From NCBI GenBank assembly GCA_024233305.1, contig JACKPV010000023.1, positions 590,789 through 654,788 on the forward strand: a stretch of 64,000 nucleotides of DNA, given 5' to 3'. Positions within the stretch are counted from its first letter, which is position 1. Every line of letters begins with the position of its first letter. This document shows positions 15,528-63,755 of the stretch, piece after piece. The translations under genes and the position numbers were made by a program. The notes under the pieces are model-generated. The model ran no database searches, was not told the origin of the DNA, and was given only the letters and a program-made list of their open reading frames with translations. Source of the DNA: Verrucomicrobiales bacterium (GTDB lineage: Bacteria > Verrucomicrobiota > Verrucomicrobiia > Limisphaerales > J093).

Positions 15528-15615
15528 GGTGCGCATCTCAGCTCTTTCGGAGCGCGGAATTCATTCCGCAGCAAGGTTGACTCCCGGCGGGGTCTGCGGA
15601 GTGAATTCCGCGCTC

Positions 15616-17571
15616 GTGCGCCTGTGAGGGCGTCCATATTGCGAGGTGAAAGTCCTCGTCAGGCGGTTCATTCACCCGCCTGTGACCGAAGGCTACTGCG
15701 TCGTGGCAACACGGGGTGGAGAGCTGCCGGAGGTGAACCATCGGTCCGTAACGAAGCGAAGTGAGACAACGAAGCCATGTGAACCCGATTCGGCCACGCC
15801 GAGCGGCGAGCCTGCGAGCGCTGTGCGAAGCCCAGGCCATGACCCAAGTGGGAGGACTTCCCTCGGTCGGCACCAGGCGACCGGGTCTTCTGGCTGGCGG
15901 TCCCGGCAGAGGAAGAGTGGATGGAGACAAATGCCCGGACTGGCGCGGTGGGGTGGTTGGGGACGGAACGATGGGAAGCATGGGCGAAGGAAGCAGGGAG
16001 ACCCGTCGGGGAACAGAACGGTGTTCATGGCCGCAAGGTCCGAAGAGCCGCCCGGCGGGAGTCAGAGCGTCCATAGTAGCGAGGAAGCGGGGTAACGCCC
16101 GGGGAGCGAAGGGGCGCAGGGAAGTGGAGACGGAACGACCATGACGAACGACGAACGCCAAGAACGACCGGCGATAGTGTCTGGGGCAACCCAGGCTAAA
16201 CAAGCCGGAGAGGTCCGCGCCCCTGGGTGGTGGATCCAACGTTCGGTATGGACGGACCGGATGCTAACGCGGCTCGCCCAAAGCGGGTCGACAACGGTAT
16301 GGTTCGGACTCTGGGACAAAGTCTGCGCGCTGCGGAACCTGCAGGCCGCTTTCCACGCGGTATGGCGGAACCGGGGTGCTCCCGGAGTGGATGGACAAAC
16401 GGTGCAACAGTTCGACCAACAGGGGACGAGCGAATTGGCCCGCCTGGGGGAAGAATTGCGCACCGGGAGCTACCGCCGCCAACCGGCGCGGCGCGTCTGG
16501 ATCGGGAAAATGGGCACGACCGAGAAGCGACCGCTGGGCATCCCGGCGGTGCGGGACCGGACCGTGGAAGCGGCCTTGCGCAATGTTCTGGAGCCGATCT
16601 TGGAGCGGGACTTTGCCGAGTGCAGCTATGGGTTTCGACCGGGACGTGGCTGTCGGGAAGCGGTGGGAAGGGTGGAAGAGTGGATGAGCCAAGGCTACGT
16701 CTGGTGCGTGGACGCGGACCTCAAGAGCTACTTTGACACCATTCCGCATGAGGGACTGATGGCGTTGGTCAAACAGCGAGTGGTGGATGGCAGGGTCCTG
16801 GCGCTGGTGGAACAATGCCTGAAGGCCGGCGTGCTGGAAACGCTCAAGGGCTGGCAGCCGACCGAACGCGGGACCCCGCAGGGGGCCGTGATCAGTCCGC
16901 TCCTGGCGAACCTGTATCTCAACCCGTTGGACCAGGAGATGGAACGGCGGGGCTGGGCGATGGTGCGCTATGCGGATGATTTGGTGGTGCTGTGCCGGAG
17001 CCGGGAAGCGGCCGAGACGGTGCTGGACTATCTGCGGGAGTGGACCACGGGAGCGGGGCTGACCCTGCACCCGACCAAGACCCGGATAGTGAACGCCACC
17101 GACGAGGGATTCGATTTCCTGGGCTGGCACTTCCGCGGGGGGAAGAAATGGCCGCGGAAGAAGAGCCGCAAGAAGCTGCCGGAGCGGTTGCGACCGCTGA
17201 CGCGACGGACCCACGGGCGAAGCCTGGGGGAAATCATCGCGAAAGTGAACCCGATCCTGCGGGGTTGGCTCGGCTACTTCCGGGACAGTTACCCGACGGG
17301 CCTGAGTGGCCCGGATGGGTGGCTGCGCCGCCGCTTGCGGGCGCTGCTGCGCAAGCGGGAGAAGCGGCCCGGACACGGGCTGAGTGAAGCCGACAGCCGA
17401 CGCTGGCCGAACCGCTGGTTTGCGGCGCAGGGCTTGTTTAGTCTGGAACATGGCTCGCGCGCTTACAGTTAGTCTCGCCGAGACCCCACTGACCGGAGAG
17501 CCGTATGCGGGAAATCCGCCCGTACGGTTCGGAGGGAGGGGTGGCGCTAATCCCGTCATCCCTACCCCTAT
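15616..17571 (+). mobile_element. Group II intron, copy 1 (1956 nt, IIC-like)
   Basis: The 5' end is GTGCGCC and the 3' end is CCCCTAT. Domain V is GAGCCGTATGCGGGAAATCCGCCCGTACGGTTC at 17498..17530 (AGC triad, GAAA loop, bulge), followed by a domain VI-like helix. The ORF sits in domain IV. Confidence 0.9.
16141..17472 (+). CDS. Group II intron reverse transcriptase/maturase (no endonuclease domain)
   Basis: RT motifs present: RRVWIGKMGTTEKRPLGIP, GFRPGRGCREA, DADLKSYFDTIPH, GTPQGAVISPLLANLYL and VRYADDLVVLC (YADD). The maturase X motif is ILRGWLGYFR. The protein is 443 aa and ends shortly after the X domain. Confidence 0.92.
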   Translation: MTNDERQERPAIVSGATQAKQAGEVRAPGWWIQRSVWTDRMLTRLAQSGSTTVWFGLWDKVCALRNLQAAFHAVWRNRGAPGVDGQTVQQFDQQGTSELARLGEELRTGSYRRQPARRVWIGKMGTTEKRPLGIPAVRDRTVEAALRNVLEPILERDFAECSYGFRPGRGCREAVGRVEEWMSQGYVWCVDADLKSYFDTIPHEGLMALVKQRVVDGRVLALVEQCLKAGVLETLKGWQPTERGTPQGAVISPLLANLYLNPLDQEMERRGWAMVRYADDLVVLCRSREAAETVLDYLREWTTGAGLTLHPTKTRIVNATDEGFDFLGWHFRGGKKWPRKKSRKKLPERLRPLTRRTHGRSLGEIIAKVNPILRGWLGYFRDSYPTGLSGPDGWLRRRLRALLRKREKRPGHGLSEADSRRWPNRWFAAQGLFSLEHGSRAYS

Positions 17572-17655
17572 CAACTCTTCGGGCCGCACGGAGTCGGAAA
17601 ACACTGAGATGCGCACGGTTTTGAGGTCGGTCGAACTGCGGGCTTGCTTCCTGTG

Positions 17656-20022: not shown

Positions 20023-20106
20023 GACCACCGAGCTTCCACGGGCGCGGCGCCGCGTCAAGTTCGGGCAGCCGGTGGACGCACGGCGGCGCGCATCCCGGCT
20101 TCTTCG

Positions 20107-22062
20107 ATAGGGGTAGGGATGACGGGATTAGCGCCACCCCTCCCTCCGAACCGTACGGGCGGATTTCCCGCATACGGCTCTCCGGTCAGTGGGGTCTCGG
20201 CGAGACTAACTGTAAGCGCGCGAGCCATGTTCCAGACTAAACAAGCCCTGCGCCGCAAACCAGCGGTTCGGCCAGCGTCGGCTGTCGGCTTCACTCAGCC
20301 CGTGTCCGGGCCGCTTCTCCCGCTTGCGCAGCAGCGCCCGCAAGCGGCGGCGCAGCCACCCATCCGGGCCACTCAGGCCCGTCGGGTAACTGTCCCGGAA
20401 GTAGCCGAGCCAACCCCGCAGGATCGGGTTCACTTTCGCGATGATTTCCCCCAGGCTTCGCCCGTTGGTCCGTCGCGTCAGCGGTCGCAACCGCTCCTGC
20501 AGCTTCTTGCGGCTCTTCTTCCGCGGCCATTTCTTCCCCCCGCGGAAGTGCCAGCCCAGGAAATCGAATCCCTCGTCGGTGGCGTTCACTATCCGGGTCT
20601 TGGTCGGGTGCAGGGTCAGCCCCGCTCCCGTGGTCCACTCCCGCAGATAGTCCAGCACCGTCTCGGCCGCTTCCCGGCTCCGGCACAGCACCACCAAATC
20701 ATCCGCATAGCGCACCATCGCCCAGCCCCGCCGTTCCATCTCCTGGTCCAACGGGTTGAGATACAGGTTCGCCAGGAGCGGACTGATCACGGCCCCCTGC
20801 GGGGTCCCGCGTTCGGTCGGCTGCCAGCCCTTGAGCGTTTCCAGCACGCCGGCCTTCAGGCATTGTTCCACCAGCGCCAGGACCCTGCCATCCACCACTC
20901 GCTGTTTGACCAACGCCATCAGTCCCTCATGCGGAATGGTGTCAAAGTAGCTCTTGAGGTCCGCGTCCACGCACCAGACGTAGCCTTGGCTCATCCACTC
21001 TTCCACCCTTCCCACCGCTTCCCGACAGCCACGTCCCGGTCGAAACCCATAGCTGCACTCGGCAAAGTCCCGCTCCAAGATCGGCTCCAGAACATTGCGC
21101 AAGGCCGCTTCCACGGTCCGGTCCCGCACCGCCGGGATGCCCAGCGGTCGCTTCTCGGTCGTGCCCATTTTCCCGATCCAGACGCGCCGCGCCGGTTGGC
21201 GGCGGTAGCTCCCGGTGCGCAATTCTTCCCCCAGGCGGGCCAATTCGCTCGTCCCCTGTTGGTCGAACTGTTGCACCGTTTGTCCATCCACTCCGGGAGC
21301 ACCCCGGTTCCGCCATACCGCGTGGAAAGCGGCCTGCAGGTTCCGCAGCGCGCAGACTTTGTCCCAGAGTCCGAACCATACCGTTGTCGACCCGCTTTGG
21401 GCGAGCCGCGTTAGCATCCGGTCCGTCCATACCGAACGTTGGATCCACCACCCAGGGGCGCGGACCTCTCCGGCTTGTTTAGCCTGGGTTGCCCCAGACA
21501 CTATCGCCGGTCGTTCTTGGCGTTCGTCGTTCGTCATGGTCGTTCCGTCTCCACTTCCCTGCGCCCCTTCGCTCCCCGGGCGTTACCCCGCTTCCTCGCT
21601 ACTATGGACGCTCTGACTCCCGCCGGGCGGCTCTTCGGACCTTGCGGCCATGAACACCGTTCTGTTCCCCGACGGGTCTCCCTGCTTCCTTCGCCCATGC
21701 TTCCCATCGTTCCGTCCCCAACCACCCCACCGCGCCAGTCCGGGCATTTGTCTCCATCCACTCTTCCTCTGCCGGGACCGCCAGCCAGAAGACCCGGTCG
21801 CCTGGTGCCGACCGAGGGAAGTCCTCCCACTTGGGTCATGGCCTGGGCTTCGCACAGCGCTCGCAGGCTCGCCGCTCGGCGTGGCCGAATCGGGTTCACA
21901 TGGCTTCGTTGTCTCACTTCGCTTCGTTACGGACCGATGGTTCACCTCCGGCAGCTCTCCACCCCGTGTTGCCACGACGCAGTAGCCTTCGGTCACAGGC
22001 GGGTGAATGAACCGCCTGACGAGGACTTTCACCTCGCAATATGGACGCCCTCACAGGCGCAC
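20107..22062 (-). mobile_element. Group II intron, copy 2 (1956 nt) in a decayed MITE
   Basis: Same ends and length as copy 1, on the minus strand. The 5' flank hairpin arm is CTGCGGAATGAATTCCGCGCTC. A degenerate terminus GCGCGCATCCCGG at 20086..20098 matches the MITE end at 10 of 13 positions. Confidence 0.9.
20206..21537 (-). CDS. Group II intron reverse transcriptase/maturase
   Basis: 443 aa. It matches the copy-4 RT except H to N in RRTNGRS. Relative to copy 1 it also has Q for P in KKLQERL. Confidence 0.92.
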   Translation of the reverse strand: MTNDERQERPAIVSGATQAKQAGEVRAPGWWIQRSVWTDRMLTRLAQSGSTTVWFGLWDKVCALRNLQAAFHAVWRNRGAPGVDGQTVQQFDQQGTSELARLGEELRTGSYRRQPARRVWIGKMGTTEKRPLGIPAVRDRTVEAALRNVLEPILERDFAECSYGFRPGRGCREAVGRVEEWMSQGYVWCVDADLKSYFDTIPHEGLMALVKQRVVDGRVLALVEQCLKAGVLETLKGWQPTERGTPQGAVISPLLANLYLNPLDQEMERRGWAMVRYADDLVVLCRSREAAETVLDYLREWTTGAGLTLHPTKTRIVNATDEGFDFLGWHFRGGKKWPRKKSRKKLQERLRPLTRRTNGRSLGEIIAKVNPILRGWLGYFRDSYPTGLSGPDGWLRRRLRALLRKREKRPGHGLSEADSRRWPNRWFAAQGLFSLEHGSRAYS

Positions 22063-22173
22063 GAGCGCGGAATTCATTCCGCAGCAAGCTTGACGGCCGG
22101 TGGGGCCAGCGGAATGAACCCCGTGCACCATTTCCCCAGCCGCCTCGGACTTGTGAAAAGCTGCGCCGTGACC

Positions 22174-22213
22174 ATTCAGTAGCTCGTAGCCGCCGACGTG
22201 TAATCGGCGCATG
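22174..22213 (+). repeat. REP-like palindromic unit, copy A
   Basis: ATTCAGTAGCTCGTAGCCGCCGACGTGTAATCGGCGCATG. Near-identical units occur at 61956..61995 (+) and 62093..62145 (-). The core hairpin is GCCGAC-N5-(G/A)TCGGC. Confidence 0.6.
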
Positions 22214-23273: not shown

Positions 23274-24406
23274 ATGAACGCCGAAGCCAAAGCCAGCGAT
23301 TGTCCCGAGCGCGACATCTTCTTCGAAGCCATCGAAAAGGCATCGGAGGAAGAGCGCGCGGCGTACGTCGAGGTGGCCTGCGGCGAGGATGCGGCCCTGC
23401 GTCGGCGCGTCGAGGTCCTGCTGACCGACCATTCCGAGGACGACGAGTTCATGCGGACCCCGGTCGCGGAGATTGTGGCCCTGGATACACCCAACGCGGC
23501 AACACTGGAACAACCCGGCACCCTGATCGGCCGCTACCGGCTACTGGAACCACTCGGCGAAGGCGGGTTCGGCGTGGTCCATCTGGCGGACCAACAGGAG
23601 CCGATCCGCCGCCAGGTCGCCCTGAAGATCATCAAGCTGGGCATGGACACCCGGCAGGTCATCGCCCGCTTCGAGGCCGAGCGGCAGGCCCTGGCGATGA
23701 TGGACCATCCCAACATCGCCAAGGTGCTCGATGCCGGGGTCACGGAGACTGGACGTCCCTACTTCGTCATGGAACGGGTCCGGGGCATTCCGATCACGCG
23801 GTTCTGCGAGGAAAACCGACTCTCGATCGAGGGACGCCTCGAACTCCTCATCCCCGTCTGCCACGCCATCCAGCATGCCCACCAGAAGGTGATCATTCAC
23901 CGGGACATCAAGCCCTCGAACGTCCTGGTCACGGGCAGTCCCGATGGTTCGGGCCACCCGATGGTGATCGACTTCGGAGTCGCCAAGGCCATCGAGGAAC
24001 CGCTTACCGACAAGCCGCTCCACACCAGCCTGCTCCAGATGATCGGCACGCCGGCTTACATGAGCCCCGAGCAGGCCGAGCGGGGACCGGGCGGCGTCAG
24101 CGATGTGGACACCCGCAGCGACGTCTATTCGCTGGGCATCCTGCTTTATGAACTCCTCACCGGCACCACGCCTTTTCCCGAGGAACGGCTGCGAGAAGCC
24201 GGGTTCGCCGAGATTCAACGGATCCTCAGCCAGGAGGAACCGCAGCAGCCGTCCGCCCGCCTTGCGGAAATCCAGGGGAGCACACGCGCCCCCGCGTGTC
24301 CCCGACCGGCGCCCCCGCCGGTTGGCTCTGGAAAGGGGGCTGGGGCCGGAAGTGAAAACGGATTCGACGGGGGCGTCGAATCCTGCACGCGAGGGCGCGT
24401 GCGCTC
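23274..24406 (+). CDS. Ser/Thr protein kinase, exon 1 (interrupted by group II intron copy 3)
   Basis: Hanks kinase motifs present: GEGGFGVVHLA, VALKIIK, IIHRDIKPSNVLV, DFGVAKA, GTPAYMSPEQ and DVYSLGILLYELLTG. The ORF-track tail beyond 24406 reads into the intron. Confidence 0.85.
24278..24406 (+). repeat. 129-nt hairpin cluster inside the kinase ORF, immediately 5' of intron copy 3
   Basis: Four local hairpins with C4 or G-rich tetraloops: 24282..24299 (ACACGCG-CCCC-CGCGTGT), 24305..24322 (ACCGGCG-CCCC-CGCCGGT), 24360..24383 (GGATTCGACG-GGGG-CGTCGAATCC) and 24385..24402 (GCACGCG-AGGG-CGCGTGC). The outer 21 nt are also mutually complementary, with 2 mismatches. Confidence 0.7.
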
Positions 24407-26362
24407 GTGCGCCTGTGAGGGCGTCCATATTGCGAGGTGAAAGTCCTCGTCAGGCGGTTCATTCACCCGCCTGTGACCGAAGGCTACTGCGTCGTGGCAA
24501 CACGGGGTGGAGAGCTGCCGGAGGTGAACCATCGGTCCGTAACGAAGCGAAGTGAGACAACGAAGCCATGTGAACCCGATTCGGCCACGCCGAGCGGCGA
24601 GCCTGCGAGCGCTGTGCGAAGCCCAGGCCATGACCCAAGTGGGAGGACTTCCCTCGGTCGGCACCAGGCGACCGGGTCTTCTGGCTGGCGGTCCCGGCAG
24701 AGGAAGAGTGGATGGAGACAAATGCCCGGACTGGCGCGGTGGGGTGGTTGGGGACGGAACGATGGGAAGCATGGGCGAAGGAAGCAGGGAGACCCGTCGG
24801 GGAACAGAACGGTGTTCATGGCCGCAAGGTCCGAAGAGCCGCCCGGCGGGAGTCAGAGCGTCCATAGTAGCGAGGAAGCGGGGTAACGCCCGGGGAGCGA
24901 AGGGGCGCAGGGAAGTGGAGACGGAACGACCATGACGAACGACGAACGCCAAGAACGACCGGCGATAGTGTCTGGGGCAACCCAGGCTAAACAAGCCGGA
25001 GAGGTCCGCGCCCCTGGGTGGTGGATCCAACGTTCGGTATGGACGGACCGGATGCTAACGCGGCTCGCCCAAAGCGGGCCGACAACGGTATGGTTCGGAC
25101 TCTGGGACAAAGTCTGCGCGCTGCGGAACCTGCAGGCCGCTTTCCACGCGGTATGGCGGAACCGGGGTGCTCCCGGAGTGGATGGACAAACGGTGCAACA
25201 GTTCGACCAACAGGGGACGAGCGAATTGGCCCGCCTGGGGGAAGAATTGCGCACCGGGAGCTACCGCCGCCAACCGGCGCGGCGCGTCTGGATCGGGAAA
25301 ATGGGCACGACCGAGAAGCGACCGCTGGGCATCCCGGCGGTGCGGGACCGGACCGTGGAAGCGGCCTTGCGCAATGTTCTGGAGCCGATCTTGGAGCGGG
25401 ACTTTGCCGAGTGCAGCTATGGGTTTCGACCGGGACGTGGCTGTCGGGAAGCGGTGGGAAGGGTGGAAGAGTGGATGAGCCAAGGCTACGTCTGGTGCGT
25501 GGACGCGGACCTCAAGAGCTACTTTGACACCATTCCGCATGAGGGACTGATGGCGTTGGTCAAACAGCGAGTGGTGGATGGCAGGGTCCTGGCGCTGGTG
25601 GAACAATGCCTGAAGGCCGGCGTGCTGGAAACGCTCAAGGGCTGGCAGCCGACCGAACGCGGGACCCCGCAGGGGGCCGTGATCAGTCCGCTCCTGGCGA
25701 ACCTGTATCTCAACCCGTTGGACCAGGAGATGGAACGGCGGGGCTGGGCGATGGTGCGCTATGCGGATGATTTGGTGGTGCTGTGCCGGAGCCGGGAAGC
25801 GGCCGAGACGGTGCTGGACTATCTGCGGGAGTGGACCACGGGAGCGGGGCTGACCCTGCACCCGACCAAGACCCGGATAGTGAACGCCACCGACGAGGGA
25901 TTCGATTTCCTGGGCTGGCACTTCCGCGGGGGGAAGAAATGGCCGCGGAAGAAGAGCCGCAAGAAGCTGCAGGAGCGGTTGCGACCGCTGACGCGACGGA
26001 CCCACGGGCGAAGCCTGGGGGAAATCATCGCGAAAGTGAACCCGATCCTGCGGGGTTGGCTCGGCTACTTCCGGGACAGTTACCCGACGGGCCTGAGTGG
26101 CCCGGATGGGTGGCTGCGCCGCCGCTTGCGGGCGCTGCTGCGCAAGCGGGAGAAGCGGCCCGGACACGGGCTGAGTGAAGCCGACAGCCGACGCTGGCCG
26201 AACCGCTGGTTTGCGGCGCAGGGCTTGTTTAGTCTGGAACATGGCTCGCGCGCTTACAGTTAGTCTCGCCGAGACCCCACTGACCGGAGAGCCGTATGCG
26301 GGAAATCCGCCCGTACGGTTCGGAGGGAGGGGTGGCGCTAATCCCGTCATCCCTACCCCTAT
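24407..26362 (+). mobile_element. Group II intron, copy 3 (1956 nt), inside the kinase ORF in sense orientation
   Basis: Same GTGCGCC...CCCCTAT ends and length as the other copies, anchored by conserved internal ORF offsets. Confidence 0.9.
24932..26263 (+). CDS. Group II intron reverse transcriptase/maturase
   Basis: 443 aa. It matches the copy-4 RT except S to P in LAQSGPTTVW. Confidence 0.92.
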   Translation: MTNDERQERPAIVSGATQAKQAGEVRAPGWWIQRSVWTDRMLTRLAQSGPTTVWFGLWDKVCALRNLQAAFHAVWRNRGAPGVDGQTVQQFDQQGTSELARLGEELRTGSYRRQPARRVWIGKMGTTEKRPLGIPAVRDRTVEAALRNVLEPILERDFAECSYGFRPGRGCREAVGRVEEWMSQGYVWCVDADLKSYFDTIPHEGLMALVKQRVVDGRVLALVEQCLKAGVLETLKGWQPTERGTPQGAVISPLLANLYLNPLDQEMERRGWAMVRYADDLVVLCRSREAAETVLDYLREWTTGAGLTLHPTKTRIVNATDEGFDFLGWHFRGGKKWPRKKSRKKLQERLRPLTRRTHGRSLGEIIAKVNPILRGWLGYFRDSYPTGLSGPDGWLRRRLRALLRKREKRPGHGLSEADSRRWPNRWFAAQGLFSLEHGSRAYS

Positions 26363-28136
26363 CCCGGAGGATGTCACGCTCGGTTTCAAGGTTCCCACCG
26401 ACCTCGACTGGATCGTGCTCAAGGCCATCGACAAGGACCGCAACCGCCGCTACGTCACCCCCAACGAACTGGCCGATGACCTCAGGCGTTTCCTCAAGAA
26501 CGAGCCCATCCTCGCCCGTCCTATCAGCCAGACCGCCAGAGTGTGGCGCTGGTGCCGACGTCACACGGCGGTCGCAGCCCTGACTGCCGGCTTGGTCCTG
26601 GCGCTGATCGCCGGCTTTGGCGGTACTCTCTGGCAGTTGCAGCGGGCGGAACAAAATGCTGCCGAGAACCTCCGCCAAGTCGCCCGGTTGAACGTCCTCA
26701 CCGGCGTCAACCTCCTGCAGGAAGGCGACTCCTTCAAGAGCCTGCTCTGGTTCGCCGAAGCCCTGGCGCTGAAGGCCGGGCCGCCCGAACGCGACGTCGT
26801 GGATCGGCTCCGCATCGCTTCCATCATCGCGCAAGGGCCGCGACTCGCCGCCGTCATCACCCACGACGGCCAACCCGTTGCCGACGCCGCCTTTCATTCC
26901 ACGAAGGATCAACTCGCCACCGTGGGACGCGACCGTCGCCTGCGCCTCTGGGACCTTGCCACCGTCGAGACAGTGTTCCTGACCGAACCCTTTGCCGAAC
27001 GTCCTTCCGAGGTCCTCTTCTCACCCGACGGCGAAGTGATCCTGGTGGGCAGCTCCGAGTTCAACCAGGTGCGCATGATCTCCGCGTTGGATGGCAAGCC
27101 GCTGAGCAACACCATCCCTCACTTTGCCGGCGGGGCGAACAACCGCCCGCTGCCACCACGCTTCGATGCTTTAGGTGAACGCCTTCTCACCCAAAGCGCA
27201 CCGAAAACACTTCGAGTCTGGGCTGTGCGCGACGGCTCCCCGCTCGGCCCGTCGATCCCGCTCGGCGCCCCGGTCGCGTGGACGGGCTTCAGCGAACATG
27301 GCACGCAAGTTCGGACGGTCACTCAGGACGGGAAGGCGACGACTTGGGATTGGCGAAGTGGAAGCCGGATATCGAACCCAGAACCCCGAACGCTGAATAT
27401 CGAAGGCGAGCCCAACTTCGACGTTGGACGTTCAGTGTTCGACATTCGAAGTTCGACTTCAGTCCGCAGCCCCGACGGCTCCCGCTACGCCACCCTTGCC
27501 GCCGATCACCGCGTGCGTGTCTGGGACTCGGGAACCGACGAACCGCTCACACCTCCCATCGACCATTTCACGGCGTCCGGCCCCGTCGGTTTCAGCGCCA
27601 ATGGCCGGTTCTTCTTCACGATGCACCCGGCCCATGCGGTGTACGTTTGGGAACTTCCGGAGAATACCGAACCGCCAGTCCTGCTCCGGCCCGAGGCCCC
27701 GAACACTCTGGCGGAGACTGGCCGGGACGGTTCGGTCATTGTGACCCGTGATCCGGGCAGCCCGATTCGCGTGCGGGCCCTGTCGGGTACCCAGGAAGTG
27801 TCCCTCCATCCCGCCAGCCTGAAGGAAGTTCCCGTGCAGGCATGGTTCGATGACACCGGCCAGTTCATCATCCTCGAATACCCGAACCAGCGTGCTCAGG
27901 TCTGGGATGCCACCTCCGGTCTGCCTGTCACTCCCGTGTTCCGGAGCCGCTACGCCACCAATGAAGCCGCCTACCGGACGATCCAGTTTCCTGATTTCCC
28001 ATCTGACACTCGCCACTCGCCGCCGCAGGCCCTGGCCGAACTCCTCTCCGGCAGCCGCCTCGACGGCACCGGCGGTTGGAAGCCGCTCGAACTGGGCGAC
28101 ATCCTCGCGCGCTGGAATGCTGTCAATCGCGAATAG
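26363..28136 (+). CDS. Ser/Thr protein kinase, exon 2 (juxtamembrane segment, TM helix, WD40-like beta-propeller)
   Basis: It resumes with PEDVTLGFKVPTDLDWIVLKAIDKDRNRRYVTPNELADDLRRFL, the typical post-catalytic segment of PVC kinases. It continues with the TM helix AVAALTAGLVLALIAGFGGTLW and WD-like repeats (RLRLWDLAT, TLRVWAV, HRVRVWDSGT, AVYVWEL, RAQVWDATS). Confidence 0.85.
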
Positions 28137-42676: not shown

Positions 42677-43015
42677 ACACCCCACACCCTGGACCGCATC
42701 CCCTCCCGCCAAAAACCTGAGATGCGCACGTCTGTGGCCGGCGGTCTGGTGGTTGAAGAATCTGACAGATTAGAAGTTGATGACACGGCTTCCATGGCGT
42801 TCTCTTCCGAGGATTCCTCCAAAACCCCTTCTTCCTTCTTCGGGATACGCTTCTCGGGCGGCGCGCCGATCCTCATGTTCCAAAGAGTCGCGACAAAAGT
42901 GAAAGTGCGCATCTCAGTGTTTTCCGACTCCGTGCGGCCCGAAGAGTCGGAGCGCGGAATTCATTCCGCAGACCCCGCCGGGAGTCAACCTTGCTGCGGA
43001 GTGAATTCCGCGCTC

Positions 43016-44971
43016 GTGCGCCTGTGAGGGCGTCCATATTGCGAGGTGAAAGTCCTCGTCAGGCGGTTCATTCACCCGCCTGTGACCGAAGGCTACTGCG
43101 TCGTGGCAACACGGGGTGGAGAGCTGCCGGAGGTGAACCATCGGTCCGTAACGAAGCGAAGTGAGACAACGAAGCCATGTGAACCCGATTCGGCCACGCC
43201 GAGCGGCGAGCCTGCGAGCGCTGTGCGAAGCCCAGGCCATGACCCAAGTGGGAGGACTTCCCTCGGTCGGCACCAGGCGACCGGGTCTTCTGGCTGGCGG
43301 TCCCGGCAGAGGAAGAGTGGATGGAGACAAATGCCCGGACTGGCGCGGTGGGGTGGTTGGGGACGGAACGATGGGAAGCATGGGCGAAGGAAGCAGGGAG
43401 ACCCGTCGGGGAACAGAACGGTGTTCATGGCCGCAAGGTCCGAAGAGCCGCCCGGCGGGAGTCAGAGCGTCCATAGTAGCGAGGAAGCGGGGTAACGCCC
43501 GGGGAGCGAAGGGGCGCAGGGAAGTGGAGACGGAACGACCATGACGAACGACGAACGCCAAGAACGACCGGCGATAGTGTCTGGGGCAACCCAGGCTAAA
43601 CAAGCCGGAGAGGTCCGCGCCCCTGGGTGGTGGATCCAACGTTCGGTATGGACGGACCGGATGCTAACACGGCTCGCCCAAAGCGGGTCGACAACGGTAT
43701 GGTTCGGACTCTGGGACAAAGTCTGCGCGCTGCGGAACCTGCAGGCCGCTTTCCACGCGGTATGGCGGAACCGGGGTGCTCCCGGAGTGGATGGACAAAC
43801 GGTGCAACAGTTCGACCAACAGGGGACGAGCGAATTGGCCCGCCTGGGGGAAGAATTGCGCACCGGGAGCTACCGCCGCCAACCGGCGCGGCGCGTCTGG
43901 ATCGGGAAAATGGGCACGACCGAGAAGCGACCGCTGGGCATCCCGGCGGTGCGGGACCGGACCGTGGAAGCGGCCTTGCGCAATGTTCTGGAGCCGATCT
44001 TGGAGCGGGACTTTGCCGAGTGCAGCTATGGGTTTCGACCGGGACGTGGCTGTCGGGAAGCGGTGGGAAGGGTGGAAGAGTGGATGAGCCAAGGCTACGT
44101 CTGGTGCGTGGACGCGGACCTCAAGAGCTACTTTGACACCATTCCGCATGAGGGACTGATGGCGTTGGTCAAACAGCGAGTGGTGGATGGCAGGGTCCTG
44201 GCGCTGGTGGAACAATGCCTGAAGGCCGGCGTGCTGGAAACGCTCAAGGGCTGGCAGCCGACCGAACGCGGGACCCCGCAGGGGGCCGTGATCAGTCCGC
44301 TCCTGGCGAACCTGTATCTCAACCCGTTGGACCAGGAGATGGAACGGCGGGGCTGGGCGATGGTGCGCTATGCGGATGATTTGGTGGTGCTGTGCCGGAG
44401 CCGGGAAGCGGCCGAGACGGTGCTGGACTATCTGCGGGAGTGGACCACGGGAGCGGGGCTGACCCTGCACCCGACCAAGACCCGGATAGTGAACGCCACC
44501 GACGAGGGATTCGATTTCCTGGGCTGGCACTTCCGCGGGGGGAAGAAATGGCCGCGGAAGAAGAGCCGCAAGAAGCTGCAGGAGCGGTTGCGACCGCTGA
44601 CGCGACGGACCCACGGGCGAAGCCTGGGGGAAATCATCGCGAAAGTGAACCCGATCCTGCGGGGTTGGCTCGGCTACTTCCGGGACAGTTACCCGACGGG
44701 CCTGAGTGGCCCGGATGGGTGGCTGCGCCGCCGCTTGCGGGCGCTGCTGCGCAAGCGGGAGAAGCGGCCCGGACACGGGCTGAGTGAAGCCGACAGCCGA
44801 CGCTGGCCGAACCGCTGGTTTGCGGCGCAGGGCTTGTTTAGTCTGGAACATGGCTCGCGCGCTTACAGTTAGTCTCGCCGAGACCCCACTGACCGGAGAG
44901 CCGTATGCGGGAAATCCGCCCGTACGGTTCGGAGGGAGGGGTGGCGCTAATCCCGTCATCCCTACCCCTAT
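43016..44971 (+). mobile_element. Group II intron, copy 4 (1956 nt)
   Basis: Same ends and length as the other copies. It is inserted after the hairpin at 42950..43015. Confidence 0.9.
43541..44872 (+). CDS. Group II intron reverse transcriptase/maturase
   Basis: 443 aa. This is the apparent consensus of the four copies. It has one synonymous difference near 43670 (ACA versus ACG). Confidence 0.92.
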   Translation: MTNDERQERPAIVSGATQAKQAGEVRAPGWWIQRSVWTDRMLTRLAQSGSTTVWFGLWDKVCALRNLQAAFHAVWRNRGAPGVDGQTVQQFDQQGTSELARLGEELRTGSYRRQPARRVWIGKMGTTEKRPLGIPAVRDRTVEAALRNVLEPILERDFAECSYGFRPGRGCREAVGRVEEWMSQGYVWCVDADLKSYFDTIPHEGLMALVKQRVVDGRVLALVEQCLKAGVLETLKGWQPTERGTPQGAVISPLLANLYLNPLDQEMERRGWAMVRYADDLVVLCRSREAAETVLDYLREWTTGAGLTLHPTKTRIVNATDEGFDFLGWHFRGGKKWPRKKSRKKLQERLRPLTRRTHGRSLGEIIAKVNPILRGWLGYFRDSYPTGLSGPDGWLRRRLRALLRKREKRPGHGLSEADSRRWPNRWFAAQGLFSLEHGSRAYS

Positions 44972-45098
44972 CGAAAAAGCTGAGATGCGCACAAAGTGAA
45001 ACAGCGGTCTTGGTTTTTTGGCGTGGGGCACATAAGCTCTGGTCATTGAACCCGAGGACAGCGCCCGGCGCGTCTGACCGATTGAAAGCACATATTCC

Positions 45099-60759: not shown

Positions 60760-61776
60760 TCAAAACAGCTTCCCCTGCGCCCCGGCTTCCCGGCCAAGTC
60801 CCAGTGTGCGGTAGCTCAGTTCGTTCGCCACCCGGCCTTGCGGCGTGCGTTTCAAATAGCCCTGCATGATCAGGTACGGCTCGTAGACCTCCTCGAGCGT
60901 GTCGGGCTCCTCGCCAACGGCCACCGCCAGCGACGCCACGCCGACCGGGCCGCCGCCGAACTTGACGATGATCGCCTCGAGGATCCGCTTGTCCATTTCG
61001 TCGAGCCCCTCGCGGTCGATCTCGAGCATGGCCAGCGCGCGGTCGGCCAGTTCCGCGGTGATCCGGCCATCCCCCCGCACCTGGGCGTAGTCGCGGACGC
61101 GGCGGAGGAGGTTGTTGGCGATGCGCGGGGTGCCCCGGCTGCGGCGGGCGATGTCGAGCGCGCCGTCGCTGGCGATCTCGACGCCCAGCAACCGGGCGGA
61201 ACGCACGACAATGTGCCGCAATTGCTCCGCCTCGTAGTAGTCCACCCGTTCGCGCAACGGAAAACGCGTGAGCAAAGGCGCGGTCAGGAGCCCGCTGCGT
61301 GTGGTGGCGCCGACGAGCGTGAACCGGGGCAGGTTCAAGCGGACACTGCGCGCGTTGGGGCCCTGGTCGATGATGATGTCCAGCTTGAAGTCCTCCATTG
61401 CGGGATAGAGGTACTCCTCAATGGTCTTTTGCAGCCGGTGGATTTCATCGATGAAGAGCACATCGCCCTCCTCGAGGTTGGTGAGGAGTCCGGCGAGGTC
61501 GCCCGCCTTCTCGATGGTGGGCCCGCTGGTGGATTTCAGGCTGGCCCCCATCGCCTTGGCGATGATGTTGGCGAGGGTGGTTTTGCCGAGTCCCGGGGGA
61601 CCGCTCAGGAGGAGGTGATCGAGGGCTTCACCCCGTTGCCGGGCGGCCTGCACCGCGATTTCGAGCCGTTCCTTGACCCGCTCCTGCCCGACGAAATCGG
61701 AGAACATCGCCGGCCGGAGCGTCAACTCCAGCGCGGCGTCAGGCTTGTTCAATCCGGACAACGGCCGCTCAGACAT
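60760..61776 (-). CDS. ruvB: Holliday junction branch-migration helicase RuvB
   Basis: [43 protein letters not shown] and [16 protein letters not shown]. Confidence 0.95.
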
Positions 61777-61875
61777 CGCCCGGCAGCATCCGGAACCGCC
61801 CCTTGACCGACAAGGCTAATCGCGATCCTCGCATCCCCCGGCGGCCGACTCGCCTTCCGGGCTTTCGCCCCTCCC

Positions 61876-61924
61876 AATCCCCATCCCCATCCCCATCCTA
61901 ATCCTAATCCTAATCCTAATCCCC
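61876..61924. repeat. Hexanucleotide array, 8 units (AATCCC/CATCCC x2/CATCCT/AATCCT x3/AATCCC)
   Basis: Read directly: AATCCCCATCCCCATCCCCATCCTAATCCTAATCCTAATCCTAATCCC. Confidence 0.9.
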
Positions 61925-61955
61925 TGCGTCAACTCTGCGATCCTGAGCCGTAGCG

Positions 61956-61995
61956 ATTCAGTAACTTGTAGCCGCCGACGTGCAGTCGGCGCATG
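61956..61995 (+). repeat. REP-like palindromic unit, copy B
   Basis: ATTCAGTAACTTGTAGCCGCCGACGTGCAGTCGGCGCATG. Similarity to copy C extends left to about 61942 (CCTGAGCCGTAGCG). Confidence 0.65.
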
Positions 61996-62092
61996 ATTCC
62001 GCTGGGATAGAGCCGCCTGCCGCCGAGGGCGACGATTCACCCAAAGGGGACTGCTGATCGGAATCGGCGAGCCCGCGTAAGCGCTTGGATTT

Positions 62093-62145
62093 CAGCGCCG
62101 ACTACACGTCGGCGGCTCCCCCGTGTTGAATCGATACGGCTGAGG
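62093..62145 (-). repeat. REP-like palindromic unit, copy C (inverted)
   Basis: The reverse complement reads CCTCAGCCGTATCGATTCAACACGGGGGAGCCGCCGACGTGTAGTCGGCGCTG, which is colinear with copy B. Confidence 0.65.
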
Positions 62146-62246
62146 AACCTGTGGCCGCCAGGGCGCGCATGATGAGCATCGCTTCGATGCGGGCAGGATC
62201 GATCGGGTTGAATGCGCACCGCCGGCTGCACGCGGGGGGCTTGCAT

Positions 62247-62324
62247 GGGGGATTGGGATCGGAATCGAGGTTAGGATTGGGATTACGATTAGGATTGCGA
62301 TTACGATTACGATTACGATTACGA
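62247..62324. repeat. Hexanucleotide array, 13 units (NNGATT type, ending in 4x ACGATT), inverted relative to 61876..61924
   Basis: Read directly: GGGATTGGGATCGGAATCGAGGTTAGGATTGGGATTACGATTAGGATTGCGATTACGATTACGATTACGATTACGAG. Confidence 0.9.
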
Positions 62325-62414
62325 GAAGGAGGGGCAGGGGCTTCGGTGCGGGCGGGGATGCCTTCCGTTCGGCCTTGAACCGCGGCCGGCGAGGCTCAAT
62401 GGTGCGGCCATCTG

Positions 62415-63755
62415 ATGCAACGACTCCGTGCTTCACACCTGCAGGCCCTCGGCGCTCCGGTCAAGGGCGGCGCCCAGCAGATCGAGGACTGGCTTCGATC
62501 CCTCCTGCAGAGCGGAACGATCCGCCTGGACTGCGGGCTGGTGGAACTGCGCGGCAGCCAGCCCGTGGCGACCACGCTCGGCGACCTGAAACGCGCCTGC
62601 GGCGTGGCGATGGAAACGGTCAAACAGGGCCTGCGCGCGCTCGAACTCGACCACTGGGTGCTGCTGGTGGACGGCGTGCACACGCGCCTGCTCGGTCCGC
62701 CACGCTTTCGCGTCAGTGTTACCAAGGAGAACATTGCCGGCAGCGTGGGCCGCGCGATTGTCATCGCCCCGATGGACGGGCTCAGTCCGCTCGAGAGCAT
62801 CGACTACGATCAACTCCGTCGCGCCGAGGAAATCGTCAGTCGCAAGCGCGTGCTCGCCGTCGAGAAGGTGGCGTTGCACTGGAACACCCGGCTGCGATTG
62901 GCGAGCGGCGACGAGGTGGACCTGCCGGCGGGCAGCCGGGTTACGCTCGCGGCCGGCAGTCAGGTGCGTACGGAAGGCCGGCTCGGGCGGGTGGAGCGGG
63001 ACCTGGAAGTGACCGCGCCCGGCGGCCGGGAGATCCGGCTGTCGCGGGCGGGAGCGGTCGTCCTCGACAAGGGCGGGCCACTCGGATTGCGGACCGGCGC
63101 CCGTCTGCATCTGGAACGGAGCAACATCGTGCGGCTGGCCGACGGCCGAACCGGGCTGCTTGAGGTGAGTTCCCACGCCGAACCGGGCCACACCGGCGAG
63201 GTCAACTGGGACGACGACAGCCACTGGCTGGCCCGTTTCACAGACGGGGTGCCGTTGGTGTTATTGCGCCGGGTGGTGTTCGCCGAATTCGAAGGGGTGG
63301 TGAACGACCAGTGTGTGGGGGTTGGGGGGCAGGGGTCGGCGGCATGGCGGGTGGCGCTGGGGGTGCACGACTGTTTTCTTGACGGTTCGATTCCGTTCCG
63401 GGCGGGGCAATGTCCGTTGCGCCGGTCGCCCGAGTTCCTGATGCGGTTTCTGAATGAACTCGACGAGACGGGTTCGCTCCGCGAGGCGATGGCGGCGCGA
63501 TTCGGGTTCGCGGCCGAGGCGGCCGACGTGCGCCTGTCGCCGGCGCGGTTCGCCGGTCCGAGTTTGCGCGGGCTCCTGCGCCAGGTCGCCACCGATCCGG
63601 CCCTGAACTCGGAGCTGCTCGCCATTGGCAGTCGCGCCGCGTGCTGGACCCAGGTCGGCGCCTATTACCGCAAGGGCGAGGCGTGGCCGTGGGAGGTGAC
63701 GCGGGAGGCCTACTTCACGTTCGTCGACATGAGTTACCGGCAGCAGGCGCTTTGA
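62415..63755 (+). CDS. Hypothetical protein (446 aa), no family recognised
   Basis: A long ORF whose codon usage resembles that of its neighbours. The competing ORFs on both strands look like frame shadows. I saw no motif I can name. Confidence 0.5.
   Translation: MQRLRASHLQALGAPVKGGAQQIEDWLRSLLQSGTIRLDCGLVELRGSQPVATTLGDLKRACGVAMETVKQGLRALELDHWVLLVDGVHTRLLGPPRFRVSVTKENIAGSVGRAIVIAPMDGLSPLESIDYDQLRRAEEIVSRKRVLAVEKVALHWNTRLRLASGDEVDLPAGSRVTLAAGSQVRTEGRLGRVERDLEVTAPGGREIRLSRAGAVVLDKGGPLGLRTGARLHLERSNIVRLADGRTGLLEVSSHAEPGHTGEVNWDDDSHWLARFTDGVPLVLLRRVVFAEFEGVVNDQCVGVGGQGSAAWRVALGVHDCFLDGSIPFRAGQCPLRRSPEFLMRFLNELDETGSLREAMAARFGFAAEAADVRLSPARFAGPSLRGLLRQVATDPALNSELLAIGSRAACWTQVGAYYRKGEAWPWEVTREAYFTFVDMSYRQQAL

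Follow-up and report, generated by a model that had tools for sequence, protein, structure and literature searches.

What is the long inverted repeat that separates ruvB from its divergent neighbour in a Verrucomicrobiales bacterium? We analyzed a stretch of 64,000 nt from this genome (contig JACKPV010000023.1, positions 590,789 to 654,788), hereafter the window, in which the spacer between ruvB and a gene for a conserved hypothetical protein is 638 bp long. A previous sequence-only reading of the window had described inverted hexanucleotide arrays that bracket two inverted units resembling repetitive extragenic palindromic (REP) elements, in non-coding DNA between ruvB and the hypothetical gene. 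All of these features were found within 2-3 nt of where that reading had placed them, and the region is indeed non-coding and lies between the two genes. The palindrome extends beyond the coordinates reported earlier; positions 61824-62367 form a single nested palindrome of ~540 bp. Our leading interpretation, to which we give about an even chance, is that the DNA at 61824-62367 was inserted and belongs, as a copy without a gene, to a class of palindromic cassettes with hexamer arms from the Planctomycetota-Verrucomicrobiota-Chlamydiota (PVC) superphylum. This class is linked to the S23p/four-helix-bundle gene family; the window copy carries a REP doublet at its centre. The parts of the spacer and its flanking genes are as follows.

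60760-61776, minus strand: ruvB
61777-61823, minus strand: 47-nt block upstream of ruvB, starting GCGATTAGCCTTGTCG, which aligns with relatives of 98% and 91% RuvB identity; outside the element
61824-61869: left outer flank, with a fold and inverted repeats; lineage-specific sequence
61870-61924, minus strand: left hexamer array, reading on the minus strand GGGATT (AGGATT)x3 AGGATG (GGGATG)x2 GGGATT GGGAGG
61868-61894, minus strand (the ruvB-sense strand): G-quadruplex motif GGGGATGGGGATGGGGATTGGGAGGGG in the left array, from a regular-expression scan
61941-61992, plus strand: REP-like unit 1, …GTAG CCGCCGAC GTGCA GTCGGCGC
61993-62094: spacer of 102 nt between the two REP-like units, in which the metagenome-assembled genome (MAG) contig L001 diverges at ~62066
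62095-62146, minus strand: REP-like unit 2, inverted
62220-62241, minus strand: degenerate REP-like hairpin in the palindrome, the fourth in the window (22-nt inverted repeat I9, 82% complementary to unit 1)
62249-62326, plus strand: right hexamer array of 12 NNGATT-type units, followed by a terminal ACGAGA
62327-62367: right outer flank, with GGAGGGGC at 62328-35 and GGGGATGC at 62354-61
62368-62414, plus strand: conserved 47-nt block upstream of the hypothetical gene, starting TTCGGCCTTGAAC, aligned with L325 and L328; outside the element
62415-63755, plus strand: conserved hypothetical gene of 446 amino acids, without a Pfam or NCBIfam match

Read on the strand of the adjacent gene, both arrays are NNGATT repeats, to which Tandem Repeats Finder (TRF) assigned a period of 6 nt with higher orders of 12 and 18 nt. 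The left array consists of CCCATC/CTAATC units on the plus strand and NNGATT/NNGATG units on the minus strand (TRF period 6/12/18 at 61868-61924), and the right array contains 12 units at 62249-62320, three of which are imperfect (TRF score 87). When (GATTNN)x4 was searched with up to 2 mismatches, 10 matches were obtained in 64 kb and all 10 were located inside the two arrays, against a shuffle expectation of 0.00. No second copy of the element was found within the 64-kb window. The arrays enclose a centre of 323 nt and are themselves enclosed by short outer pairings of GCCCCTCC (61867-74) with GGAGGGGC and of GCATCCCC (61831-38) with GGGGATGC. The segment 61826-62366 folded into one nested hairpin as RNA (-265.8 kcal/mol, z = -5.55) and gave z = -5.30 as DNA; none of 100 shuffles matched this folding. 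Rfam searches of the region and of eight PVC loci, at gathering and permissive thresholds, returned only sub-threshold, meaningless matches to miRNA hairpins and snoRNAs.

The sequence-only reading had also suggested that the arrays could be prone to slippage and act as a length-variable spacer. Blocks of identical units in the window arrays, (AGGATT)4, (GGGATG)3 and (ACGATT)4, are signatures of slippage and favour the first part of this suggestion, while variation in length within the species was not seen. An independent ENA assembly (L002) spans the whole spacer and is identical over 711 bp except for one single-nucleotide polymorphism at 61882 in the left array, which was the only difference when array lengths were compared between assemblies; both arrays are equal in length in L002 and the window. 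In the same-species NCBI MAG contig L001, the left array and the first REP unit are unchanged and are followed by a different REP-family copy and then by the end of the contig, which is a typical assembly break inside a repeat. A contingency microsatellite was considered and rejected, as the units are heterogeneous and the lengths are equal in the independent assembly, that of the left array also in the second MAG.

Comparison with relatives defined the ends of the element. In the relative with 98% RuvB identity, homology to the window ends at ~61823, and the 50 nt past this breakpoint match nothing anywhere in the window. An empty site was sought in this relative and was not found; its three contigs end 41-97 nt upstream of ruvB. 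Relatives with 91% RuvB identity have different neighbour genes and no arrays. For the hypothetical gene, the relatives (~80% identity) and the window have in common no more than the ~47 nt directly upstream of the start codon, a stretch beginning TTTGGCCTTGAAC; homology on this side starts at ~62365-62368, and the genes further upstream are quite different in these relatives. No homology to the element was detected beside ruvB or the hypothetical gene in relatives of 98%, 91% and 80% protein identity. Since homology stops at ~61823 and resumes at ~62365, the element comprises 61824 to ~62367, exactly the lineage-specific part of the spacer, and these limits fall just outside the outermost stem pairs. 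Judged from these alignments, the boundaries are the footprint of an insertion or replacement and not of an ancient regulatory region. Control specific to one gene was also considered and is not supported, because intergenic DNA at many other, unrelated places contains similar arrays and, beside the same genes in relatives, no homology to the element is seen.

Those similar arrays form a class. When a collection with a single genome for each species was scanned for (GATTNN)x5 at 6-nt spacing, at least 120 loci were obtained, 57 of which had a PVC source by record titles (Verrucomicrobiota including Akkermansia, Kiritimatiellia, Lentisphaerae, Planctomycetota and Chlamydiales were counted). The PVC phyla make up about one twentieth of species. 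The following counts refer to the matches listed. Heterogeneous A-N-GATT arrays outside the window were in PVC-labelled MAGs in 55 of 69 cases. In the PVC unit A-N-G-A-T-T, 79% of units have A at the first position, which hardly varies inside an array, whereas the N position is mixed within arrays (C 38, G 28, A 27 and T 8%); the within-array minority fraction was 0.33 at N versus 0.08 at the first position. Homogeneous arrays accounted for 11/67 in PVC versus 37/68 elsewhere, and the non-PVC arrays were mostly homogeneous microsatellites, many of them within open reading frames (ORFs). Paired PVC arrays were oriented '-,+' in 20 cases versus '+,-' in four, mostly with loops of 13-17 nt. Most PVC arrays stand as an inverted pair with the layout (NTAATC)m - centre - (GATTAN)n, in which GATTA is conserved and N varies within the array, and the outer ends carry A[CAG]GAG and then a purine-rich flank, mirrored on the opposite side.

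The window element agrees with the class in arrangement, array ends and host group. Database sources assign its RuvB and hypothetical protein to a 'Verrucomicrobiales bacterium', a member of the PVC superphylum. GATT-type units are read from the minus strand in the left array and from the plus strand in the right one. The latter ends in GATT-ACGAG-AAGGAGGGG, with GATTACGAGAAGGAGGGGC on the right mirrored by a C-rich GCCCCTCCC on the left. It closes with the 13-mer GATTACGAGAAGG, and cassettes L269 and L279 have exactly this sequence where their arrays end. GATT is conserved, and unit variation in the window is mainly at the base two before GATT, which is A or G (A in the class); the left array also has GATG for GATT, and the base adjoining GATT varies (C/G) in the right array only. 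At array ends in L083, L086, L105 and L127, GATTAC arrays run straight into (ACGAGC)n arrays, which, together with the AGCAAG and AGTAAG arrays beside some bundle genes (below), suggests a general A-N-G-A-x-x unit whose last bases differ by subfamily. In an Akkermansia divergent spacer (L036, 4120-4420), further palindromes are built of GTGATCA heptamers and TCGAAA/TCGATT hexamers, and nested repeat-armed palindromes thus seem general in these genomes.

The link to a gene family emerged from an ORF comparison of 59 array loci, again among the matches listed, which exposed a small gene directly between the arrays in L011 and L062 and a third copy of it, likewise flanked by arrays, elsewhere on L049. 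The gene has ~135 codons and belongs to PF05635 ('23S rRNA-intervening sequence protein') and TIGR02436 ('four helix bundle protein'); the closest solved structure of its product is PDB 2GSC from Xanthomonas. In a test independent of the arrays, 80 metagenome loci were fetched by alignment of these three bundle proteins only; an array was called upstream when at least 3 TAATC units lay within ~150 nt, and downstream when at least 3 GATTA units did. Arrays were present on both sides of the gene at 44 of the 80 loci and on at least one side at 61 (76%), the opposite arrangement was seen at seven, and control windows elsewhere in these loci contained an array in 1/590 cases. Only period 6 was enriched (26/71 loci on each side versus 0/388 controls). 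No rRNA gene was found at the 20 protein-chosen loci that were checked.

Gene and arrays are closely fitted to each other. In many cassettes the stop codon of the gene is part of the right array, namely of its first GAT-TAA/TAG. Some cassettes, above all those of the clade found upstream of coaBC, have the start codon 1-7 nt past the left array. The number of units differs between close cassettes (seven in L248 versus five in L250). Many cassettes have an additional outer inverted repeat GGGCGCAT…ATGCGCCC. Other subfamilies of the gene are flanked by the inverted hexamers CTTACT/AGTAAG, CTTGCT/AGCAAG and TACTCG/CGAGTA; bundle genes between inverted AGCAAG/CTTGCT or AGTAAG/CTTACT arrays were seen among L284, L293, L306, L311 and L318. 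In the coaBC clade of Verrucomicrobiota (L011 4178-4640; L245-L253, L255, L257), the cassette fills the gap from a gene ending …PPEF and stop to coaBC, the start codon of coaBC directly follows or overlaps the last array unit, and an AGGA of the array is at the position where a ribosome-binding site would be expected.

These data bear on the view that the two window arrays are ordinary microsatellites which arose independently and face each other by chance beside an unrelated REP doublet. The blocks of identical units and the 12- and 18-nt higher-order periods are in its favour, as is the frequency of GATTAN in AT-rich viral contigs. However, the minority fraction at N was 0.33 in PVC and 0.13 in non-PVC arrays among the matches listed, and 0.11 in viral arrays; the orientation bias was 20 to 4; the mirrored flanks that extend the palindrome are not repeats; and one gene family is array-linked at 61/80 loci against 1/590 controls. 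We therefore regard chance microsatellites as highly improbable and already disfavoured, and the isolated microsatellite that the sequence-only reading had named as the refuting case is contradicted by the PVC-wide class, the orientation bias and the heterogeneous units. Viral GATTAN arrays were examined as a possible case of the same phenomenon and were set aside, as they are mostly homogeneous (minority fraction 0.11) and lie in AT-rich contigs (median 33% GC). They are frequent, show no '-,+' bias and are not accompanied by a four-helix-bundle gene; many giant-virus MAGs are among their contigs.

Copies without an intact gene also occur. In an Akkermansia muciniphila MAG (L051, 750-1005), arrays 138 nt apart lie within a 19-nt outer inverted repeat (95% complementary) and enclose an ORF that begins with MNHRFDHEKLEVYQ, the conserved N-terminus of the family; its first 14 codons match and the remainder is unrelated. 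By its sequence, L051 is a four-helix-bundle cassette with an internal deletion. Compact array pairs with loops of 13-17 nt carry no ORF, and one of them is ~2 kb from an intact cassette on L049. In one compact subfamily, CTGGTGGAGAAYGG forms the loop and GAATGGCGCTAAGTTAAG…CTTAACTTAGCGCCATTC the outer stem; the ORF-less hairpins of this subfamily are located as follows.

L036, 4508-4662 and 4704-4846
L103, 2760-3000
L120, 868-1022
L059, 64-204

Outside the arrays, members of this subfamily from an Akkermansia MAG and a Lake Mendota Kiritimatiellia MAG are ~95% identical. Other copies show mirrored base changes, and copies are flanked by direct repeats, GGGCGTCCCGCCC or GGCCCGGTCCC. The compact hairpins matched no Rfam family and may represent either a structured RNA or a mobile element. 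In this decay series, the place of the window copy would be at the end where the gene is missing.

The centre of the window element is occupied by other sequences. REP-like units 1 and 2 are 52 nt long, inverted and 81% complementary. Their hairpin core GCCGCCGACGTGCAGTCGGCGC recurs at 22189-22210 (0 expected), within a third unit that spans 22174-22213. In all, the motif of GTAG plus a GC-rich hairpin has three copies and a degenerate fourth in the 64-kb window, and a variant copy stands at the end of L001. The earlier description of the inner units as REP-like is supported: they share GTAG and the GC-rich hairpin, they occur at 3-4 places, short-read MAG assemblies break inside them, and they behave as a dispersed REP-like family. 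The unit at 22174-22213 is ~90 nt from the 5' end of a minus-strand group II intron. This intron of ~1.98 kb is present in four copies, at 15594-17572 (+), 20106-22084 (-), 24401-26363 (+) and 42994-44972 (+), which are 99.8-99.9% identical to each other and have Rfam RF00029 at each 3' end. Such near-identity points to recent retrohoming in this genome.

An alternative is that the arrays came first. On this view, inverted GATTA hairpins are a general intergenic repeat of PVC bacteria, comparable to REPs or to the short tandem repeats of cyanobacteria, and it follows that the gene and the REP doublet are later cargos of the loop, and that the window never had the gene. This would agree with the construction of the window centre from an independently dispersed REP family, with the presence of the gene in only three of ~59 array-ascertained loci (among the matches listed), with the existence of unpaired long arrays such as that of L044, and with the known position of S23p genes in rRNA hairpin loops. 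On the other hand, the start and stop codons of the cargo are integrated with the arrays, the truncated remnant in L051 shows decay from a gene-carrying form, and array flanks in 76% of a protein subfamily are hard to obtain through random insertion into existing hairpins. We consider it unlikely that the arrays preceded the gene.

Several observations weigh against our leading interpretation, the gene-less cassette. Neither the 323-nt centre nor the rest of the 64-kb window contained a four-helix-bundle gene or a remnant of one when 86 family members were used as queries in tblastn and blastx. It is thus the arms that would connect the element with a gene cassette, and the copy can be classed solely as ORF-less. 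A small point in the other direction, to which we attach little weight, is the junction AATCCCCC-ATG that directly follows the right array on the minus strand, as it does in cassette L248. No target-site duplication is visible at 61824 and 62367. The outer repeat of many cassettes is at best weakly echoed by GCATCCCC…GGGGATGC of the window. The window units are a G-rich variant (GGGATT, GGGATG, GCGATT), in keeping with the 65% GC of the genome. All-against-all BLAST of the ORFs of the 59 array loci (among the matches listed) revealed no recurrent transposase, recombinase or regulator. The bundle proteins are mildly acidic (median pI 5.9), and the idea of the bundle protein as a basic nucleic-acid binder is unsupported for this reason. 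Finally, complementarity of the variable bases between arms was 0.587 against 0.587 after permutation in one comparison and 0.581 against 0.555 in another; in compact hairpins, paired in their natural register, 44% of the variable bases were Watson-Crick pairs against 32% expected, a weak excess. A high-GC Verrucomicrobia MAG (L044, 3385-3520 and 3700-3770) has an unpaired C-rich array of ~22 units, (CCCACT)n(CCCAAT)n, followed by CTCCGC-type repeats, and G/C-rich unit variants like those of the window thus exist elsewhere.

Because the complementarity of the arms is near chance, selection seems to act on GATTA at a 6-nt phase and not on perfect pairing of the stem, as would be expected if a protein read the motif. 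The hexamers may be recognised by a protein in view of a conserved GATTA and a free N that is poorly complementary between arms. A more specific proposal is that the palindrome is a dyad-symmetric binding platform, of iteron, centromere or operator type, for a protein acting on ruvB and/or the neighbour gene. The conserved GATTA phase and the free, uncompensated sixth base would be expected of such a platform, and the head-to-head arrangement recalls short-repeat arrays bound by ribbon-helix-helix proteins. Yet the setting is chromosomal, no rep, par or regulator gene is nearby, no gene family recurs beside the arrays of the 59 loci (among the matches listed), such arrays are also found at a large number of unrelated loci, some of them within operons, and the orthologous genes in relatives adjoin no array homologue. 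We judge a binding platform for these two genes very unlikely, and the iteron or centromere analogy of the sequence-only reading fails on the lack of a nearby rep or par gene and of a recurrent gene family.

Alternatively, the structure may work in place, either as an RNA stem that is processed, for instance by RNase III, or protects transcript ends, or as a DNA cruciform or G-quadruplex with an effect on the two divergent promoters or a pause of replication as its result. Consistent with such a role would be the fold (z = -5.5 as RNA, -5.3 as DNA), the parallel to rRNA intervening sequences, whose stems RNase III cuts, and the G-quadruplex motif of the ruvB-sense strand, one of 10 canonical motifs in the whole window; the element also abuts both promoter-proximal blocks. 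The 61777-61823 block is likely the ruvB promoter region. Both 47-nt blocks begin with GCCTTG(TCG/AAC), which is possibly a -35 region; the leaders of both genes would then be very short. However, a scan of 61600-62600 detected no sigma-70 promoter and no intrinsic terminator, and the arms are not intrinsic terminators since no T-runs follow them. Since the flanking genes are divergent and no promoter- or terminator-like sites lie inside, a transcript spanning both arms is unlikely. The absence of homology to the element beside the same genes in relatives and the near-chance complementarity of the arms also argue against a function in place, which we regard as quite unlikely. As no transcript over both arms is obvious, the window copy is most likely an inert or selfish insertion and not a regulator, and at this site it probably does nothing. 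Side effects may arise from a cruciform or from a G-quadruplex on the ruvB-sense strand.

If the element is a gene-less cassette, the following scheme can be proposed. The arms are inverted arrays of the 5-nt GATTA, partly GATTG or GATG in the window, with a 6-nt period and one variable base, and they would lengthen and shorten through slipped-strand mispairing. Together with the short GC-rich outer inverted repeats, they would close a long interrupted stem around a central cargo, which in intact relatives is the S23p/four-helix-bundle gene. From the window copy the gene is absent, having either been lost or never been present, and the centre holds the REP doublet with the degenerate third unit. 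By analogy with 23S intervening sequences, the arms of a PVC cassette would pair in a read-through transcript and then be processed. Two mechanisms are candidates: the arms may form a stem that undergoes RNase III-type processing, or GATTA may be bound by a protein.

The nearest known systems are the S23p-bearing intervening sequences in 23S rRNA genes, which occur in Coxiella, Leptospira and the Xanthomonas group. The S23p/four-helix-bundle family is related to the Avd proteins of diversity-generating retroelements. To our knowledge, no function has been assigned to it in the time since the early 1990s, when rRNA intervening sequences were described, and we know of no explanation for the origin and spread of these sequences. 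In Coxiella, the S23p ORF lies in the loop of a 28-bp terminal-inverted-repeat stem that is cut by RNase III, and tandem GACAGAT heptamers beside the ORF vary in number among strains (PMC4990558). The intervening sequences are regarded as selfish or once-mobile, with an unknown mechanism of spread (PMC4990558). Like them, the PVC cassettes have a PF05635/TIGR02436 gene in the loop of a terminal-inverted-repeat stem and short tandem repeats beside the ORF. Unlike them, the PVC cassettes lie between protein-coding genes, and their arms are long hexamer arrays and not a unique stem of 28 bp. The window copy shares the terminal inverted repeats that form a stem (z = -5.5) but has neither the ORF nor an rRNA; the only Rfam families in the window are the group II introns. 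No description of the hexamer arrays was found in the searchable literature with the repeat strings, Verrucomicrobia/Akkermansia hexanucleotide repeats or TIGR02436/PF05635, a coverage that lacks most subscription journals and does not prove novelty.

Other comparisons concern parts of the element. The inner units share with REP elements, bacterial interspersed mosaic elements and REP doublets forming hairpins, reportedly treated by Nunvar (2010), Bertels and Rainey (2011) and Ton-Hoang (2012), the GTAG with a GC-rich imperfect hairpin, the inverted doublet, dispersal and the breaking of short-read assemblies. However, only 3-4 inner-unit copies were seen in the 64-kb window, and the hexamer arrays themselves are not REPs. 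With miniature inverted-repeat transposable elements (MITEs), the PVC cassettes share terminal inverted repeats, a majority of copies without an ORF, a copy with only the 5' part of the gene (L051) and near-identical copies across phyla, whereas their cargo is not a recognisable transposase and no consistent target-site duplication was found; their mobility is conjectural. The short tandemly repeated repetitive heptamers of cyanobacteria, said to have been described by Mazel in 1990, resemble the PVC arrays as lineage-specific short-unit tandem arrays in intergenic DNA with unknown function, but the PVC arrays are built of hexamers, form inverted pairs of a set orientation and are associated with a single gene family. 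Cooperatively bound short repeats include the omega-repressor heptads of pSM19035, the 6-bp repeats of pB171 parC and the subterminal AAACGG hexamers of maize Ac. The PVC arrays share with such arrays phased motifs of 6-7 bp, direct and inverted, with a conserved motif and a free spacer base; they lack a plasmid or partition context, the associated bundle proteins are acidic, and any partner protein is hypothetical.

At 80% identity or less, the product of the hypothetical gene on the other side of the spacer is conserved across Verrucomicrobiota (relatives L325-L329). A homologue is annotated in one source as 'predicted RecA/RadA family phage recombinase'. The downstream aminotransferase neighbour of the gene is conserved, and its upstream neighbours vary in relatives, with toxin-antitoxin-like genes or a gene of MmeI-type restriction-modification.

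Beyond this locus, it is conceivable, though less likely than not, that S23p genes with inverted GATTA-hexamer arms are previously unrecognised and widespread mobile cassettes of PVC bacteria with MITE-like gene-less copies, some of them ~95% identical across phyla. The 23S intervening sequences would then be a special case that landed in rRNA, and the arms would be sites of recognition or processing by the bundle protein or a host nuclease that drive excision, expression or spread.

The element in the window explains why short-read assemblies of this lineage break at ruvB and why the spacer differs from that of close relatives. Annotation pipelines should treat such hexamer arrays as a repeat element and should not call spurious ORFs through them. 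For the family, the location of three quarters of one bundle-gene subfamily outside rRNA and between oriented hexamer arrays provides a concrete, testable system. As the class is present in the cultivable Akkermansia muciniphila, the function of the protein, the cutting of the arms by RNase III or their binding by a protein, and the movement of the cassettes can be addressed.

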